DNA of 64,000 nucleotides from assembly GCA_963722255.1 (NCBI GenBank), contig CAVRJO010000001.1:192001-256000 (forward strand), read 5' to 3'. The DNA is from Candidatus Babeliales bacterium (lineage in GTDB: Bacteria > Babelota > Babeliae > Babelales > JANWKD01). Under the pieces are notes generated by a model, which had not been told where the DNA came from, ran no database searches, and was given only the letters and a program-made list of their open reading frames with translations. This document shows positions 52,474 to 60,070 of the stretch, one piece after another; within the stretch, counting starts at the first letter, position 1; each line of letters opens with the position of its first letter. Position numbers and translations under genes: made by a program.

Positions 52474-52526
52474 GACCCACCATTTCCAACTACGTTATTT
52501 AATAAAAAAATTACAACAAAAAGAGA

Positions 52527-52614
52527 TGGGGAAGCTCATACAAGAATAAATGTACCCCTGCTGCTTCTTTTCGGACCTGACAGATTAAGTAACTATTTCT
52601 TATTCACTTCCCCA
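52527..52614 (-). ncRNA. ffs: Signal recognition particle RNA (4.5S)
   Basis: Minus strand GGGGAAG...TCAGGTCCGAAAAGAAGCAGCA...CTTCCCC; helix-8 motif, paired ends, upstream of dnaX. Confidence 0.9.
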
Positions 52615-52682
52615 AATTTATTAATCCTTTAGCTAACTCTCGCTACGCGCTTCGAAAAACAAGTTAACGAAATCTGGCGTAG

Positions 52683-52729
52683 CCAGTCGTAGTTTGCCGA
52701 GCCTGAAGGCCCGGATAAACGAAGACTGG
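52683..52729. repeat. GTAG/CGAA-type palindromic element abutting the tRNA 3' end
   Basis: CCAGTC-GTAG-TTTGCCGAGCC-TGAA-GGCCCGGATAAA-CGAA-GACTGG. Confidence 0.55.
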
Positions 52730-52818
52730 TGGAGAGAGAGGGATTCGAACCCTCGATGCCTCTTTCGAGACATACACGATTTCCAATCATGCTCTTTCAA
52801 CCACTCAGACACCTCTCC
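52727..52818 (-). tRNA. tRNA-Ser(GGA)
   Basis: GGAGAGG acceptor, CATGA-TTGGAAA-TCGTG anticodon arm, long variable arm, GGTTCGAATCC, encoded CCA. Confidence 0.96.
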
Positions 52819-53860: not shown

Positions 53861-55285
53861 TTAAATTCCAACAACTGCTTCTTCAGAAAATTCAAGCCCA
53901 ATCACTTCATTACGTTCAATTGCCTTATTATAACGTTTCCCCAACAAAAATGCGGTAATAAACCATAAAACAATTATGCCTGAAAAAAAGACTGAATGCA
54001 GTGGAAAGAAAAGCGCAGGCCCTAAATTTTCAGCAGTCATTACAAATGTTGATCCTACACTCTTTGCAAAACGAGAACCAAATGCGTCAATCCATGATTT
54101 CGATTTAAATTTAATATCTTTTAAGGTCGGAATATATAAACTTTCACGAACTGGTTGTGCAAAGGCATAATTAATCGCTTGTAATAAAATCAAGCCAACA
54201 ACAACTGCAAATGGCGTGTAGCTCACAATAAAGTAAAGGAGAAGCAAGAAGGTAAATCCTGGAACTAAAAGAAGGCATATCCTTTCTCCAAATACACGCA
54301 ACAGGGTCCCTGTTCCTAAGAATGAAATCAGTATTCCAAAAAAGTGCTGTATAAAAGCAACCATAAATAAAAATCCGCTGACTCCTGAAATATCAGTTGC
54401 ATTGTCTTGAGCGACACCAAGCCTATGATAACTTAAGACAGTACTTACAACCTCATAGAAAAATAACATTCCAAAAATACCCAAAATATAGGGACATTTG
54501 ATCAACATTATAAGCCCGGAGAAAATTCCTACCTTTTCATGGCCTTCTGCTTTTTTTTCTTTTTCTCTTTCAAACTGATAGGCGGCTTCATAGCCGTGTA
54601 AAAATTTTTTTGGAACTTTTTTAATTAACATATACACAATAAAGGGAATTATTAACATTAAAAGCGAAAAAAAGCCTAAAAGGAATTGATGACTCACAAC
54701 ATCAGAAAATAGTTTTGTCCCGGCAACGGTTCTATAACTAAAAAGAGCCCATGCAAATCCGGCAGTTACCATTCCACCTATCTTTGAAGCCGAAACTAGA
54801 AAGGCATAACTTTTTTTTGCACCTTCGGGATCATACACTGAATTAGCAAATGCCCAGAAAACACTGATCACAAAAGGAGAAAATCCTTCAATAAAGAAAT
54901 AGAACAACCAACCAAATAATCGATAAGGACTTGCTTCAGTATTGGGAAGACCAATAGTAGGATGGCCCACTAAATAAACACAAAAAAGACCAACAACGCC
55001 GTATACAATACTATAAAAATAGAGAAGTTGATATCTTCTAATCTTATCAACAAGGAAAGAATAAAATAAGATCGCAGGAATAAGCATTAACATCGCCATC
55101 ATTCTTGCAAGAGGAACATATTCCTTTCCTACAATGCTCATAAACATTGAGCTTTTGAGCTCCCTTACTAGGGTATACGCTCCGATTGTAAGAAAAAATG
55201 AAAGTCCTAATAAAATGAGCTTTAATCGCTCTTCTCGCCTGATATTAAAAAATGACTTAAAATACAAACTGAGCTTAGAACTCAT
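53861..55285 (-). CDS. NTP/NDP exchange transporter (TLC/Npt family)
   Basis: Y.LVRELK, FWAFANSV..P..AKKSY, PVRESLYIPT..IKFKSKSWID.FG.R.AK. Confidence 0.9.
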   Translation of the reverse strand: MSSKLSLYFKSFFNIRREERLKLILLGLSFFLTIGAYTLVRELKSSMFMSIVGKEYVPLARMMAMLMLIPAILFYSFLVDKIRRYQLLYFYSIVYGVVGLFCVYLVGHPTIGLPNTEASPYRLFGWLFYFFIEGFSPFVISVFWAFANSVYDPEGAKKSYAFLVSASKIGGMVTAGFAWALFSYRTVAGTKLFSDVVSHQFLLGFFSLLMLIIPFIVYMLIKKVPKKFLHGYEAAYQFEREKEKKAEGHEKVGIFSGLIMLIKCPYILGIFGMLFFYEVVSTVLSYHRLGVAQDNATDISGVSGFLFMVAFIQHFFGILISFLGTGTLLRVFGERICLLLVPGFTFLLLLYFIVSYTPFAVVVGLILLQAINYAFAQPVRESLYIPTLKDIKFKSKSWIDAFGSRFAKSVGSTFVMTAENLGPALFFPLHSVFFSGIIVLWFITAFLLGKRYNKAIERNEVIGLEFSEEAVVGI

Positions 55286-55334
55286 TGAGACCCCCCGCAC
55301 TAGTTAATTATGGCAAAAATATAACTCTTTTTAC

Positions 55335-55392: not shown

Positions 55393-56745
55393 TTAGCAAA
55401 CAACACGCTTTTCAGCGATTGCTTGTTTATGTGTTTTAGCGAGATATAAAGCTACATATAACCAAATGCCCACCATTCCAAGCGAAGCAGCGGTTGAGAA
55501 TAGAATAAAGGTTTCGCTGGTAACAAATTGTTTAACAATATTAATACCTGAACCCAAAGCCTTTGAACTACGTGAACCGAACATCTCCATGAACGCTTTA
55601 ACTTTATATTTTGTTTCAGGCGTTGTAGGAATATATAACTGCTCTTTTGAAGGTTGGTTTAACGCATAGTTAAGACCTTTTGAGAATACCATGATCCAGA
55701 ATGCAATTGCCAAAGTAGGCTTGAAAGCAAGAATCAATGCAGCAATAGCAATAACTATAGGCATAACTATCAATGCTACGGAAAGACCAAGCTTACGACC
55801 GATGTTATTAACACCCAAGAATACGCAAATACAAGCAAGGATATTGGTATAAACGCCATAAACACCCATGTATGAGGTATATGCGTCTGCGCCGGAATAC
55901 TCTAAGGACGCAAAATATTTAAGATAAAAGTCAAAAATTGTAACAATAACCTCATAAAGCGTAATAACTGCAAAAATTCCAAGCAAATAAGGCTGGGAAA
56001 GAAGCAACTTCATATCATCAATAAAGTTTGTTTTTACTTTAGGCTTTGAATGCGCTCCAGCTGCTTGATAACCAGCAAGTTCCTCTTTTGGAGTCACCTT
56101 CATAAAGAACCATACCATTCCTCCAATGCCAAGCATTACAACGCTTGCAAGCATAAGTAAATTAGGAACACCAATTTTTTCTGCTTGGATAGCTAAGAGA
56201 GGCCCTACGATACCACCTAATTGTGCGCCAAATGCAACTAAAGCATAGCCGCGCTTAGCGGAATCAGGAGTTGTAGTATCTGCAGCAAACGCCCAAAAAA
56301 GCGCCACCATGATAGAACCAAAACTTTCAACGAATGTATATGAAACCCAACCAACTAAGCGACCCAAAAAGTCTGCATGGCCAGCTTGAGGAGTAATAGC
56401 AGGACTGTATATTCCATAATGCCCATGTAACATCACCAAACCAAGCCCTAATGCAATTAATGCATAGATTACACTTAACGCATAGAAAACTCGCTGGCGT
56501 GGAAATGCATCAACCAATTTCGAATATAAAATAACTAAAGGAATAACAACGACAAGGGAAACAAGTTTAGCAGTAGGAATATATTGCGCGCCTACATACT
56601 GGTTAAATACCCCATCTTTGATTGGCCTTAAGAGCCAATATACGCCAATAGTGAAACTAAAAATTCCGCCCAAAAGAGAAAATTTCTTCAATTCAGGCTT
56701 AGTAAAAGTACCCCACCATGTTTTAATAGCCGAACTATTATCCAT
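55393..56745 (-). CDS. NTP/NDP exchange transporter (TLC/Npt family), paralogue
   Basis: YWLLRPIKD, FWAFAAD...SAKRGY, PSKEQLYIPT..TKYKVKAF...GSR..K. Confidence 0.9.
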   Translation of the reverse strand: MDNSSAIKTWWGTFTKPELKKFSLLGGIFSFTIGVYWLLRPIKDGVFNQYVGAQYIPTAKLVSLVVVIPLVILYSKLVDAFPRQRVFYALSVIYALIALGLGLVMLHGHYGIYSPAITPQAGHADFLGRLVGWVSYTFVESFGSIMVALFWAFAADTTTPDSAKRGYALVAFGAQLGGIVGPLLAIQAEKIGVPNLLMLASVVMLGIGGMVWFFMKVTPKEELAGYQAAGAHSKPKVKTNFIDDMKLLLSQPYLLGIFAVITLYEVIVTIFDFYLKYFASLEYSGADAYTSYMGVYGVYTNILACICVFLGVNNIGRKLGLSVALIVMPIVIAIAALILAFKPTLAIAFWIMVFSKGLNYALNQPSKEQLYIPTTPETKYKVKAFMEMFGSRSSKALGSGINIVKQFVTSETFILFSTAASLGMVGIWLYVALYLAKTHKQAIAEKRVVC

Positions 56746-56796: not shown

Positions 56797-56825
56797 ACTG
56801 TATCAAAAGATTAATCATTTGTAAA
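56797..56825 (-). promoter_or_regulatory. Sigma70-like promoter for Npt operon
   Basis: Minus strand TTTACA-17 nt-TACAGT. Confidence 0.45.
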
Positions 56826-56890
56826 AAAATATTCAAAAATTCAAGAAACTCATTGTTCTTCATTCCGCATTCATAGTTTCTTGCATTAAG

Positions 56891-57388
56891 AAATGGCCTC
56901 ATGCCGGCTGGCATAACTGCATTACCCAATACAGTTAACATAAAAGTTTTTTAAATTAGGTATTTTTCTGCTATAAAATCCCTATAACCCTAATTCTTTT
57001 TAATAAGATTTTATCTGTAAAGGATTGCATGCCCAATACCTTTAATACACGTTTTTTTAACTTAGGTATTTTTATGTCAAAAATACCTAAAACCAAAAGG
57101 ACACCTAAGAAGTATCTTAGGAATCTCTGTCGCGCAAAAGGCGGGCCCTCGCATATTCTTGCAGAATATGCTGCTGACCCTTCAACGGTTGCGCTCAAAA
57201 GAAACAATTTATAAAATTCTCCGGTAGCTACACGTGGTCCCGAAAACTTAATGCTGTAAGCATTAATGTTGAAGTGGGCCATATTGGAGCGGGAAAGCAT
57301 TCCACCAGCATGGTGGTGTCCTTGTAGTTAAGGTATATTGGACAAGCAATATACCTTATTAAAAAAAATTCCTGCATAAGGGCCATTT
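56891..57388. ncRNA. Candidate large structured non-coding RNA of unknown family
   Basis: End-to-end pairing plus many nested helices forming two four-way junctions; no credible ORF; see findings. Confidence 0.65.
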
Positions 57389-57601
57389 TAAAATACTATT
57401 GCCCGAAGGCACTATTTGGATTAGAATTATTACATACTAAAAATACGACATTTACTAGAGAGTCCCTTTTTGCTACGCTATTAGAAAGGGTCGGTCACTT
57501 ACCCAACTCGATTCCTCCACTTATTAACAAAAATTAACAAAATTTCGAGTAACTTTTGTACTTAAAAAATCAAATAGTACTTATTTGAGACGGGAAAACT
57601 T

Positions 57602-60070
57602 ATGAACAAAGAAATTCAAGCTTCACACAAAGAATATTCGACGCACTATTTGCCGCTTTTGCCGCTCAAAAATGTAATTATTCTTCCAAAAAGTATTTTA
57701 CCTATAATTGTTGGCAGACCTTCTTCAATCCAGGCCGTTGAATTTGCGTTAAAAGACGATAAATCTATTTTTATATCAACGCAAAAAAATGCAGCTACAG
57801 AAAACCCGAACGAAGATGATATTTTTCAGGTTGGCACAAAAGCTACAATTTTACAGGTTATGCGCATGCCAAATGGTTCACTCAAAATTCTTGTTGAAGG
57901 GATTTGTAGAGCGCGCATCTTACAGGCCGACCATACACATGGGTTTATTGGTGTGACTATTGTTGATATGCCAACGACCCATTTAGAAAAAAGTATAGAA
58001 ATCGAGGCACTATGGCGCCACTTAAAAGAACTCTATGAAGATTATACTAAACATAATGAAAAAGTACCTGCTGATCTAATGTCCATCGCAAAATCAGTAG
58101 AAGATATGGATGCTATTGCTGATACGATTGCCGTGCATATAAACCTATCTTTTGATGAACGTCAAGCAATGCTTGAAACACCTGATTTAAAAGAGCGACT
58201 CATCAAACTCAGCGCACTCTTAAAAAAAGAGATCGATATTCTACAAACGGAGCAGCGTATTAAAGGCAGGATTCAAACACAAGTTGAAAAAAGCCAACGC
58301 GAATATTATCTTACTGAACAATTGAAAGCAATTCACAAAGAACTTGGCCGAGAAGATCAAGGTGCCGAGATAGTACAACTGCGCAATAAAGCAAAAAATC
58401 TTGGCCTTTCTGAAGAAGCTTTTGAAAAGGTTGAAAAAGAGTTTAAACGATTAGAACAGATGCCTCCTTTATCATCTGAAGCTGCCGTTTCGCGCAATTA
58501 TATCGATTGGATTTTATCATTACCTTGGAAAAAACAAAGCAAAGACTCAATTAGTCTTGAACAAGCCGAAAAAATTCTTAATAAGCAGCATGCCGGTCTT
58601 TCTAAGCCTAAGGAACGAATCATTGAATTTATTGCCGCTAAAAAGTTTTCAAAATCTATTGAACGTTCGCCTATTATTTGTCTCGTAGGCCCTCCGGGCG
58701 TGGGAAAAACATCATTGGCATCCTCAATTGCTAAAAGCCTCGGTCGAGAGTTTGTTCGAATTTCATTGGGTGGCATTCGTGATGAAGCAGAAATTCGTGG
58801 CCACCGAAGAACCTATATTGGTGCACTTCCCGGCAAGATCATACAAGGCATGAAAAAAGCAAAAACATTGAATCCTCTTATTTTGCTTGATGAAATAGAT
58901 AAAATGGCACGTGATATGCATGGCGATCCAGCATCAGCTCTTCTTGAAGTGTTAGATCCGGAACAAAACAGAACATTCACCGATCATTTTCTTGATATGG
59001 AATATGATCTTTCAAAAGTTATGTTTCTTGCAACGGCTAATATGATTGAAGGTATTCCATACCCACTTTTTGATCGCATGGAAATCATTACCCTAGCAGG
59101 CTATACTGAAGATGAAAAAAGAGAGATTGCTCGTAATTTCCTTATTCCTAAAGGGCTTAAAGAATATCAGCTCACTAAAAAACAGTTTCATATAACTGAT
59201 GTAACCTTACATAAAGTTATCAGCGAATACACCAAAGAGGCTGGCGTTCGACAGCTTGAACGCACCTTAACAAAATTAATGCGTAAGACCATTCAACTAC
59301 TTTTAAAAGATCATACTATAACATCCGTTGTAGTTACTGATGAACTCTTAAAAGAATGGCTCGGGCATCCAAAGTTTAAAAAAACAACACTTGATCTACT
59401 CAAAGAACGTGTTGGCATCGTTACAGGACTCGCATGGACTGAAGTTGGCGGCGACGTTTTAGAGATTGAAACATCGGTTCTTCCTGGTAAAGGAGGCTTA
59501 ACGCTTACTGGCCAACTTGGTGAAGTTATGCAAGAATCAGCATACGCTGCGTTGAGCTATATTCGTTCGCGTGCTTCTGAACTTGGACTTAAAGATTCAT
59601 TCTATTCATCCAAAGATTTGCATATTCATATACCTGAAGGCGCAACTCCAAAGGATGGCCCTTCTGCTGGTATTACCATGTGCGTTTCATTGGTTTCAGC
59701 ACTCACCAAAAATCCTACACGCCCTGACGTTGCCATGACGGGTGAAATTACCCTACGTGGACGTGTACTTTCTGTTGGTGGACTTAAGGAAAAGCTTCTT
59801 GCAGCTCAACAACATAATTTAACAACCGTAATTGTACCTAGAGAAAATCGCGATGATATTGAAGAGATCACCAAAGATACTCCATTGAATCTCAAAATCA
59901 TCTTTGTTGATAACATCGATGAAGTTCTTGTTCATGCATTGCAAAAAAATCCTTTTGAAAAAGCCAAAGAAGCTAAAAAGAATGGTAAAAATGGCAAGAA
60001 TAGTAAAAAGGAAGCTTCAACTTCAAAAAGTTCAAAAACGAAATCAAACGTTAAAGCTAAGAAGAAATAA
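57602..60070 (+). CDS. lon: ATP-dependent Lon protease
   Basis: LPLLPL..., [42 protein letters not shown]. Confidence 0.98.

Follow-up and report, generated by a model that had tools for sequence, protein, structure and literature searches.

A structured npt–lon spacer in a Babeliales genome probably holds an inserted composite repeat with a conserved fold in each arm

What is the strongly structured stretch of DNA that separates two nucleotide translocase genes from lon in a genome of the Babeliales (Dependentiae)? Dependentiae are obligate protist parasites that have barely been cultured, and among the papers listed by full-text literature searches none dealt with repeats or non-coding RNAs of this group. 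The locus lies in a window of 64,000 nt, by which we mean the whole stretch of DNA analysed (G000:C1:192001–256000); G000 is a 1.62-Mb genome in two contigs, C1 and C2, and coordinates below are window positions unless a contig is named. Pfam searches placed two TLC ATP/ADP translocase genes (npt) at 53861–55300 and 55393–56745, both on the minus strand, and the Lon gene at 57602–60070 on the plus strand, on the other side of the structured stretch; these are the neighbours named in the original prediction. The npt–lon spacer is 818 bp long.

The spacer had been described as holding no credible gene, and its four small ORFs (109, 61, 52 and 48 aa) indeed gave nothing in Pfam at E ≤ 0.1. A small protein encoded by the 61-aa ORF (57029–57214, plus strand) or the 109-aa ORF (56971–57300, minus strand) is extremely improbable. 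Both ORFs are present in the sequence, and near-identical paralogues permit a similar basic N-terminal peptide; however, where the stems of paralogues covary the peptide changes are non-conservative, the start and frame are missing in the copies from two relatives (G004 and G001), neither ORF has a Pfam match, and the 109-aa ORF runs across both of the inverted arms described below. The ATG of a 46-codon basic ORF (57074–57076) sits in the loop of a hairpin at 57062–57090, and this ORF is conserved in near-identical paralogues only.

Nor does the stretch belong to a catalogued RNA family. Scanned against Rfam 15 at gathering score, the whole window gave only tRNA and SRP RNA, so that the Rfam check proposed with the original prediction came out in its favour; a permissive scan of the region (E ≤ 10) gave eight matches of 11.7–22 bits to miRNA, snoRNA and sRNA families, far below threshold. 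Upstream of npt, the two RNAs recognised by Rfam adjoin each other: a small SRP RNA of the bacterial type at 52522–52616 (minus strand; 41.7 bits, narrowly passing the gathering score of 40) and tRNA-Ser(GGA) at 52727–52818 (minus strand).

The original prediction read 56891–57388 as one large single-copy non-coding RNA, folded into a nested rod with two four-way junctions. Every pairing that it listed is present in the sequence. A repeat finder recovered the perfect 12-bp hairpins (57062–57073/57079–57090 and 57329–57340/57347–57358), the T7AA/TTA7 pair (57052–57072/57348–57368) and the AAGGACAC/GTGTCCTT pair (57091–57105/57315–57329). With a minimum free energy (MFE) of −143.5 kcal/mol (z −6.02) for the plus strand and −159.8 kcal/mol (z −6.32) for the minus strand, the 498 nt fold better than every one of 100 dinucleotide shuffles per strand. 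The structure is real and exceeds chance. The question is which unit of the stretch carries it.

The sequence recurs throughout its own genome. A BLAST search with 56880–57420 against G000 gave 45 rows at E ≤ 1e-3, 42 of them outside the locus itself. A copy of 56956–57373 with 77% identity lies at C1:422 kb, the copies at C1:697 kb and C1:572 kb are split by an additional 150–200 nt at their centre, and half copies occur together with many short hairpin fragments. A GC-rich, hairpin-rich insert of 150–300 nt recurs at element centres or inside loops (G000:C1:697409–697587 and C1:572110–572306; L016/L019 in G001; L066 and L095 in G003); it is conspicuous in these AT-rich genomes and may represent a second small repeat family.

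Comparison with relatives indicates that the stretch is additional DNA. The npt–lon arrangement is syntenic, at 71–79% identity, in the congener G001 and in G003 and G004 of the same family, where the spacer measures about 265–380 bp as against 818 bp in G000. Two conserved blocks are common to the spacers of G000 and its relatives, one adjoining the start of npt (56803–56829) and one upstream of lon (57450–57476); the surrounding intergenic DNA is diverged, and these short blocks may serve the two divergent genes as operators or promoters. The gap between them (56830–57449 in the window) spans 620 nt in G000, 42 nt in G001 and 111 nt in G003, and a covariance model of the repeat (R1, described below) finds zero matches in the syntenic spacers of G001, G003 and G004. 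From the block spacing and the absence of R1 matches we conclude that 56889–57390 falls entirely within some 500 nt of additional DNA. Comparison of npt–lon spacers, as proposed with the original prediction, found the spacer syntenic and the block absent from all three relatives. No clear direct repeat of the target-site type was seen at 56889/57390 or around the G003 copies, where flanks are diverged and elements nested, and alignments with relatives and among G003 copies gave no resolution of the exact element termini.

The internal organisation of the block became apparent from an alignment of 16 full or half copies from G000, G001 and G004 (A1). RNAalifold, applied to this mixture of full and half copies, recovered only two helices owing to gaps; the structure was therefore written by hand from the helices of the original prediction and paralogue evidence, and then tested by pair counts. 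Pairing holds in 92.8% of the cells of A1, and changes on both sides were counted for 32 of its 82 pairs, compared with 17.4 ± 2.2 compensatory pairs in shuffles and 5–10 with slid partners. R1, the covariance model derived from A1 (157 positions, 40 pairs), keeps only the better-sampled 3′ half. It matches 57209–57365 on the plus strand (175.6 bits), which we call the right arm and regard as the canonical module, and it also matches 57055–57213 end to end on the minus strand (55.2 bits, E 3.3e-18, model positions 1–157; 39 of 41 model pairs formed), a diverged module copy that we call the left arm. The "5′ halves" of other copies likewise match R1 on the minus strand. Since R1 matches both arms, the core of the element is a head-to-head pair of homologous modules that meet at the palindromic centre TTTATAAA (57207–57214), where the 5′ TATAAA boxes of both arms overlap. 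Across G000, R1 gives 15 matches of 103–176 bits as well as weaker ones, 42 in total at E ≤ 0.01. The right arm recurs at C1:697588 with 94% and at C2:269059 with 92% identity to the window's own copy, as compared with an identity of 75–79% between the flanking npt and lon genes and those of the congener G001, which shows recent spread.

Outside the core, the block consists of shorter pieces. Its left edge (56889–56925) is an outer inverted-repeat remnant that contains AAATGGCC at 56891–56898 and a small hairpin (56901–56905/56910–56914), and BLAST at E ≤ 1e-3 found no further copy of it in G000. A shorter counterpart on the right (57366–57390) contains GGCCATTT at 57381–57388, and the two outermost 8-nt ends pair with each other. 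Between the left remnant and the core lie a fragmentary repeat piece (56925–57016) and an orphan short hairpin of the terminal-hairpin type (57017–57048). The former includes a degenerate, terminal-hairpin-like stretch at 56949–56985 with a weak R1 match of 6.5 bits; 56948–57014 recurs at C1:513986, C1:655248, C1:670165 and C2:681262 with 86–93% identity, and the repeat finder lists 56925–56977 as a direct repeat of 57032–57083 (families D1 and D2). The latter overlaps a weak minus-strand R1 match at 57019–57049 (5.6 bits) and adjoins the core in the C1:422 kb, G004 and G001 copies. Both pieces are further fragments of the repeat family to which the arms belong. Full elements in G003 measure 460–740 nt, as compared with ~500 nt in the window; they carry a conserved outer inverted repeat of ~70 nt outside the terminal hairpins and are nested inside further inverted repeats. 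By eye, the left end of the element at the npt–lon spacer resembles this outer repeat, to which it would be homologous, and the right end would be a shortened form of it.

Each arm carries a conserved fold of its own. A long hairpin, bent and with a conserved internal loop rich in purines, is followed by a short hairpin and then by a terminal hairpin of 12 bp, the loop of which forms a pseudoknot of 4–5 bp with the bases just upstream. In the right arm (plus strand), covariation was counted for the helices 57227–57232/57285–57290, 57234–57240/57276–57282, 57245–57247/57268–57270, 57248–57254/57260–57266 and 57303–57307/57311–57315, for the terminal hairpin 57329–57340/57347–57358 and for the pseudoknot between 57317–57320 and 57341–57344. 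In the left arm (minus strand), the terminal hairpin is the perfect 12-bp hairpin at 57062–57090, the pseudoknot connects 57100–57103 with loop bases 57075–57078, and the local helices (57105–57120, 57132–57137/57189–57194, 57143–57147/57176–57180 and 57151–57171) covary among paralogues. An extension of the outer helix by pairing of 5′ TCC with 3′ GGA was dropped by eye, as it is lost in distant copies.

We aligned 61 R1 matches (57 distinct) from genomes across the order to R1 (A2). The 40 modelled pairs are 92.8% paired, compared with 37–46% with slid partners; compensatory change occurs in 39 of the 40, and the covariation score reaches 0.611, as compared with 0.162 for shuffled alignments. 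A2 was fitted to R1, which favours the nested helices; the pseudoknot pairs are absent from R1, and the pseudoknot therefore served as a test unbiased by the model. It joins the 4 nt directly upstream of the terminal hairpin to the first four bases of its loop, and in A2 it is 90.3% paired, against 21–52% with slid partners. All four pairs covary, with 43 doubly changed cells as opposed to 13.1 in shuffles. By these pair counts, the covariation asked for with the original prediction is present in the helices inside the arms.

The same data separate the arm-level fold from the long-range helices. In 11 arm pairs, the share of columns that can pair is 50.4% between arms (55% in the window's own copy) and 92.6% within arms, and in 5 of the 11 inverted pairs the arms differ at pseudoknot positions while each retains its own pseudoknot. 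The conserved unit is the arm-level fold and not the long-range helices; these, with the four-way junctions and the supposed kissing loops, follow from inverted symmetry. This applies to the paired ends, the outer junction, and the AAGGACAC/GTGTCCTT, GAAT/ATTC, GGCCC/GGGCC and CTTCAAC/GTTGAAG helices. The apparent 500-nt rod is a geometric outcome of inverted repetition and nested repeat fragments. Two details of the original prediction change with it: the TGTC/GACA kissing loops are better explained by the pseudoknot inside each arm, and the proposed GCGCAA/TTGCGC pseudoknot is the nested, covarying helix 57132–57137/57189–57194 of the left arm.

A single-copy structured RNA gene of about 500 nt between npt and lon is accordingly contradicted and, in our estimation, very improbable. 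The listed pairings, the z-scores of about −6 on both strands and the lack of an Rfam match are what such a gene would lead one to expect; but the sequence is multi-copy in G000, the syntenic spacers of three relatives are without the block, its two halves are inverted homologues with the low cross-arm pairing just given, and other copies hold central inserts of 150–200 nt or consist of one arm. Of the large non-coding RNA first proposed, the non-coding character, the strong structure, the position outside Rfam and the covarying helices stand, and what falls is the single ~500-nt, single-copy gene.

On which strand does the fold reside? This had been left undecided, and each arm can now be assigned to its own outward-reading strand, the left arm to the minus and the right arm to the plus strand, on account of an excess of G-U pairs and lower MFE. 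Over the modelled pairs and the pseudoknot we counted 96 G-U/U-G cells and 21 A-C/C-A cells. In 53 of 55 modules it is the modelled strand that folds to the lower MFE (means of −53.9 and −45.7 kcal/mol; right arm of the window −52.2 sense against −42.8 antisense); part of this difference reflects base composition, since module z-scores are similar on both strands (−4.6 and −4.4). The 5′ edge of the module is marked by a TATAAA box that precedes the conserved TCCGGUAG motif (TCCGG) by about 11 nt, with frequencies over 55 modules of T 0.78, A 0.75, T 0.51, A 0.75, A 0.69 and A 0.80, that is, with A instead of T at the last position. No conserved signal upstream of the box, a −35 element included, was found in the 55 modules. 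The AT-rich terminal hairpin is followed by UUAUUA8-type tails and no U tract, and a scan for intrinsic terminators flags only a short internal hairpin of the left arm.

A fold in single-stranded DNA would also be compatible with the base pairing and the G-T wobble, and the main rival to a fold at the RNA level is that it is recognised as such by a hairpin-binding HUH (Y1) transposase, in the manner of IS200/IS605-type palindrome-associated elements. IS200/IS605 transposases act on folded single strands. G000 has 11 Y1 transposase genes, such genes are present in 10 of the 17 module-bearing genomes as compared with 52 of 151 overall, the fold is strand-specific and hairpin-rich at its ends, and new copies adjoin or enter the hairpins of older ones. 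We nevertheless hold this alternative to be on the unlikely side. The GC-rich end hairpins of the IS200-like elements of G000 are unrelated to the module hairpins, no IS200-like element adjoins a module with the exception of one inserted into a repeat fragment, and a Y1 gene went undetected in 7 of the 17 module-bearing genomes. The arms of an inverted pair fold on opposite strands, so that excision of the whole element as a single strand would be ill-suited to it. Frequent loops of the GGAA and UGNAA types, moreover, look more RNA-like, as does the purine-rich internal loop.

The IS200-like elements of G000 themselves comprise at least two families of about 630 and 655 bp, with Y1 transposases and GC-rich end hairpins, at 11 loci (among them C1:718312, C1:761156, C2:651384, C1:655406 and C2:669475). 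The copy at C1:655406 is inserted into a repeat-fragment copy homologous to window 56948–57050; a reading of 56948–57050 as a tnpA-deleted IS200 was rejected, as that IS200 has merely inserted there and has unrelated end hairpins of its own. G000 also has a 448-aa reverse-transcriptase ORF (RVT_1, 149.9 bits) in three identical copies, at C1:85847–86467, C1:189896–190516 (~1.5 kb before the window start) and C2:248930–249550, with a degenerate copy at C1:617 kb. These ORFs probably belong to a mobile group II intron, and none adjoins a module; an ORF-less group II intron is an unlikely identity for the stretch, given that no BLAST or R1 match falls at the reverse-transcriptase loci.

The presence of the module over the order is patchy. 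Multi-copy R1 matches occur in 17 of 151 sampled Babeliales genomes, in 6 of 21 families when G000 is left out, and in a second sample in 21 of 151 genomes, all of them Babeliales. The wide scans scored 13 candidates per genome, which makes copy numbers outside G000 lower bounds, and related genomes are non-independent samples. A sequence-pattern scan of genome contigs returned one Babeliales MAG and one Cycloclasticus MAG, the latter a chance hit with no R1 match. Modules lie in intergenic DNA and are nested in one another. In G003, G004, G032, G037, G104 and G134 the inverted pair is found again, with the minus-strand module first and the plus-strand module second, and with spacers of 3 to ~310 nt. 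G178 combines an inverted pair, spaced by 170 nt, with tandem arrays of 391-nt units; at its loci L105 (G178:C1:96500–100800) and L106 the modules are GC-rich (0.62–0.63), and the 391-nt units adjoin a 277-nt inverted pair that is 98% complementary.

Such a distribution bears on whether the module could be a stand-alone small RNA gene family with a cellular trans-acting function, non-mobile and duplicated by ordinary recombination. The TATAAA box, conserved at a constant distance from where the structure starts, the strand-specific conservation of the fold across at least six families of the order and the tandem arrays of G178 are all in keeping with this. Presence is patchy, however, copy number varies, copies are truncated, nested or interrupted by inserts, and insertion is polymorphic at a conserved spacer. 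Orientation relative to neighbouring genes is unbiased as well (upstream 26 same and 23 opposite, downstream 29 same and 25 opposite), and the terminator-type U tract is lacking. We regard a non-mobile gene family as improbable.

Taken together, the region is probably an inserted copy of a composite, non-coding, MITE-like repeat of the Babeliales whose arms carry a conserved fold, likely at the RNA level. It shares the features by which such elements are recognised: terminal inverted repeats (both arms match R1 end to end and the 8-nt ends pair), a small size with no coding capacity (its ORFs are unconserved and without Pfam match), and many dispersed copies with insertion polymorphism (42 R1 matches; an empty spacer in G001, G003 and G004). 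Its core consists of two inverted, head-to-head copies of the ~157-nt module, each of which begins at its TATAAA box and folds on its own outward-reading strand. The arms might be transcribed outward from the box, or the element might be co-transcribed with, or read through from, its neighbours; the element would spread by means of a putative enzyme acting in trans. A non-exhaustive search found no related autonomous insertion sequence with the same ends, and DNA between distant arm pairs holds only ordinary genes (FtsY, RNase HII, SpoU methylase, a TPR protein) or no ORF. At L092:190–1299 (G004:C6), the ORF of a Tn5/IS4-like DDE transposase (369 aa) ends inside a module copy, which may be coincidence or may be a lead to the mobilising enzyme.

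The composite repeat invites a further, speculative extension that we consider possible but rather doubtful: that the arms encode a new class of structured RNA of ~140 nt with its own TATAAA box, acting in trans for the element. Such an RNA might guide or scaffold an unrecognised mobile-element protein, or might be self-processing, and if so Dependentiae would harbour an RNA-based mobile system specific to them, beyond a passive palindromic repeat. What makes the arms attractive in either case is that an order-wide repeat family has retained a complex fold with a covarying pseudoknot through many compensatory changes, a mode of selection expected for functional RNAs and unusual in passive MITEs. 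The module is thereby a concrete candidate for a new structured RNA class linked to genome plasticity in reduced intracellular genomes. The locus also holds a caution, in that an apparently giant "nested rod" can arise from inverted repeat modules.

How does the element compare with known systems? Like the candidate structured RNA motifs in Rfam, the module is an intergenic motif defined by covariation, pseudoknot included, but neither the region studied here nor any of 10 loci from other genera has a match in Rfam 15. With the omega RNA of TnpB and the bridge RNA of IS110 it shares a structured non-coding module of ~150 nt, a hairpin near the element end and association with a mobile element. 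Those RNAs belong to cognate genes, whereas the modules here are attached to no such gene: TnpB (PF07282, PF01385) and the IS110 transposase (PF01548) have zero matches in G000, which is 93% complete, and were detected in control genomes. Since the cognate genes are absent, a TnpB/IscB omega RNA or an IS110 bridge RNA was ruled out.

REPINs, which are mobilised by the Y1-family protein RAYT, likewise comprise two inverted units with a short spacer and a conserved structure, in genomes that contain Y1-family genes. REP units, however, measure about 20–35 nt as compared with ~157 nt here, and no single-copy RAYT gene flanked by modules was found, the 11 Y1 genes of G000 being mostly those of multi-copy IS200-like elements with unrelated hairpins. 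On these two grounds a REPIN/RAYT identity was ruled out.

The closest likeness is to the bacterial MITEs, such as Correia/CREE of Neisseria, ERIC, BOX, RUP and the Coxiella QMITE. In a review (PMC10969869), they are described as short, non-coding, AT-rich, intergenic, multi-copy sequences with inverted repeats; a stable stem-loop is predicted in their transcripts, outward sigma-70-like boxes are possible, and elements insert into one another. All of these find a counterpart in the Babeliales repeat, down to its nesting and its possible outward promoter box. It differs in the great length of its arms, which reach ~157 nt plus outer segments, and in that each arm has a multi-hairpin fold with a pseudoknot, maintained by compensatory changes across families of the order.
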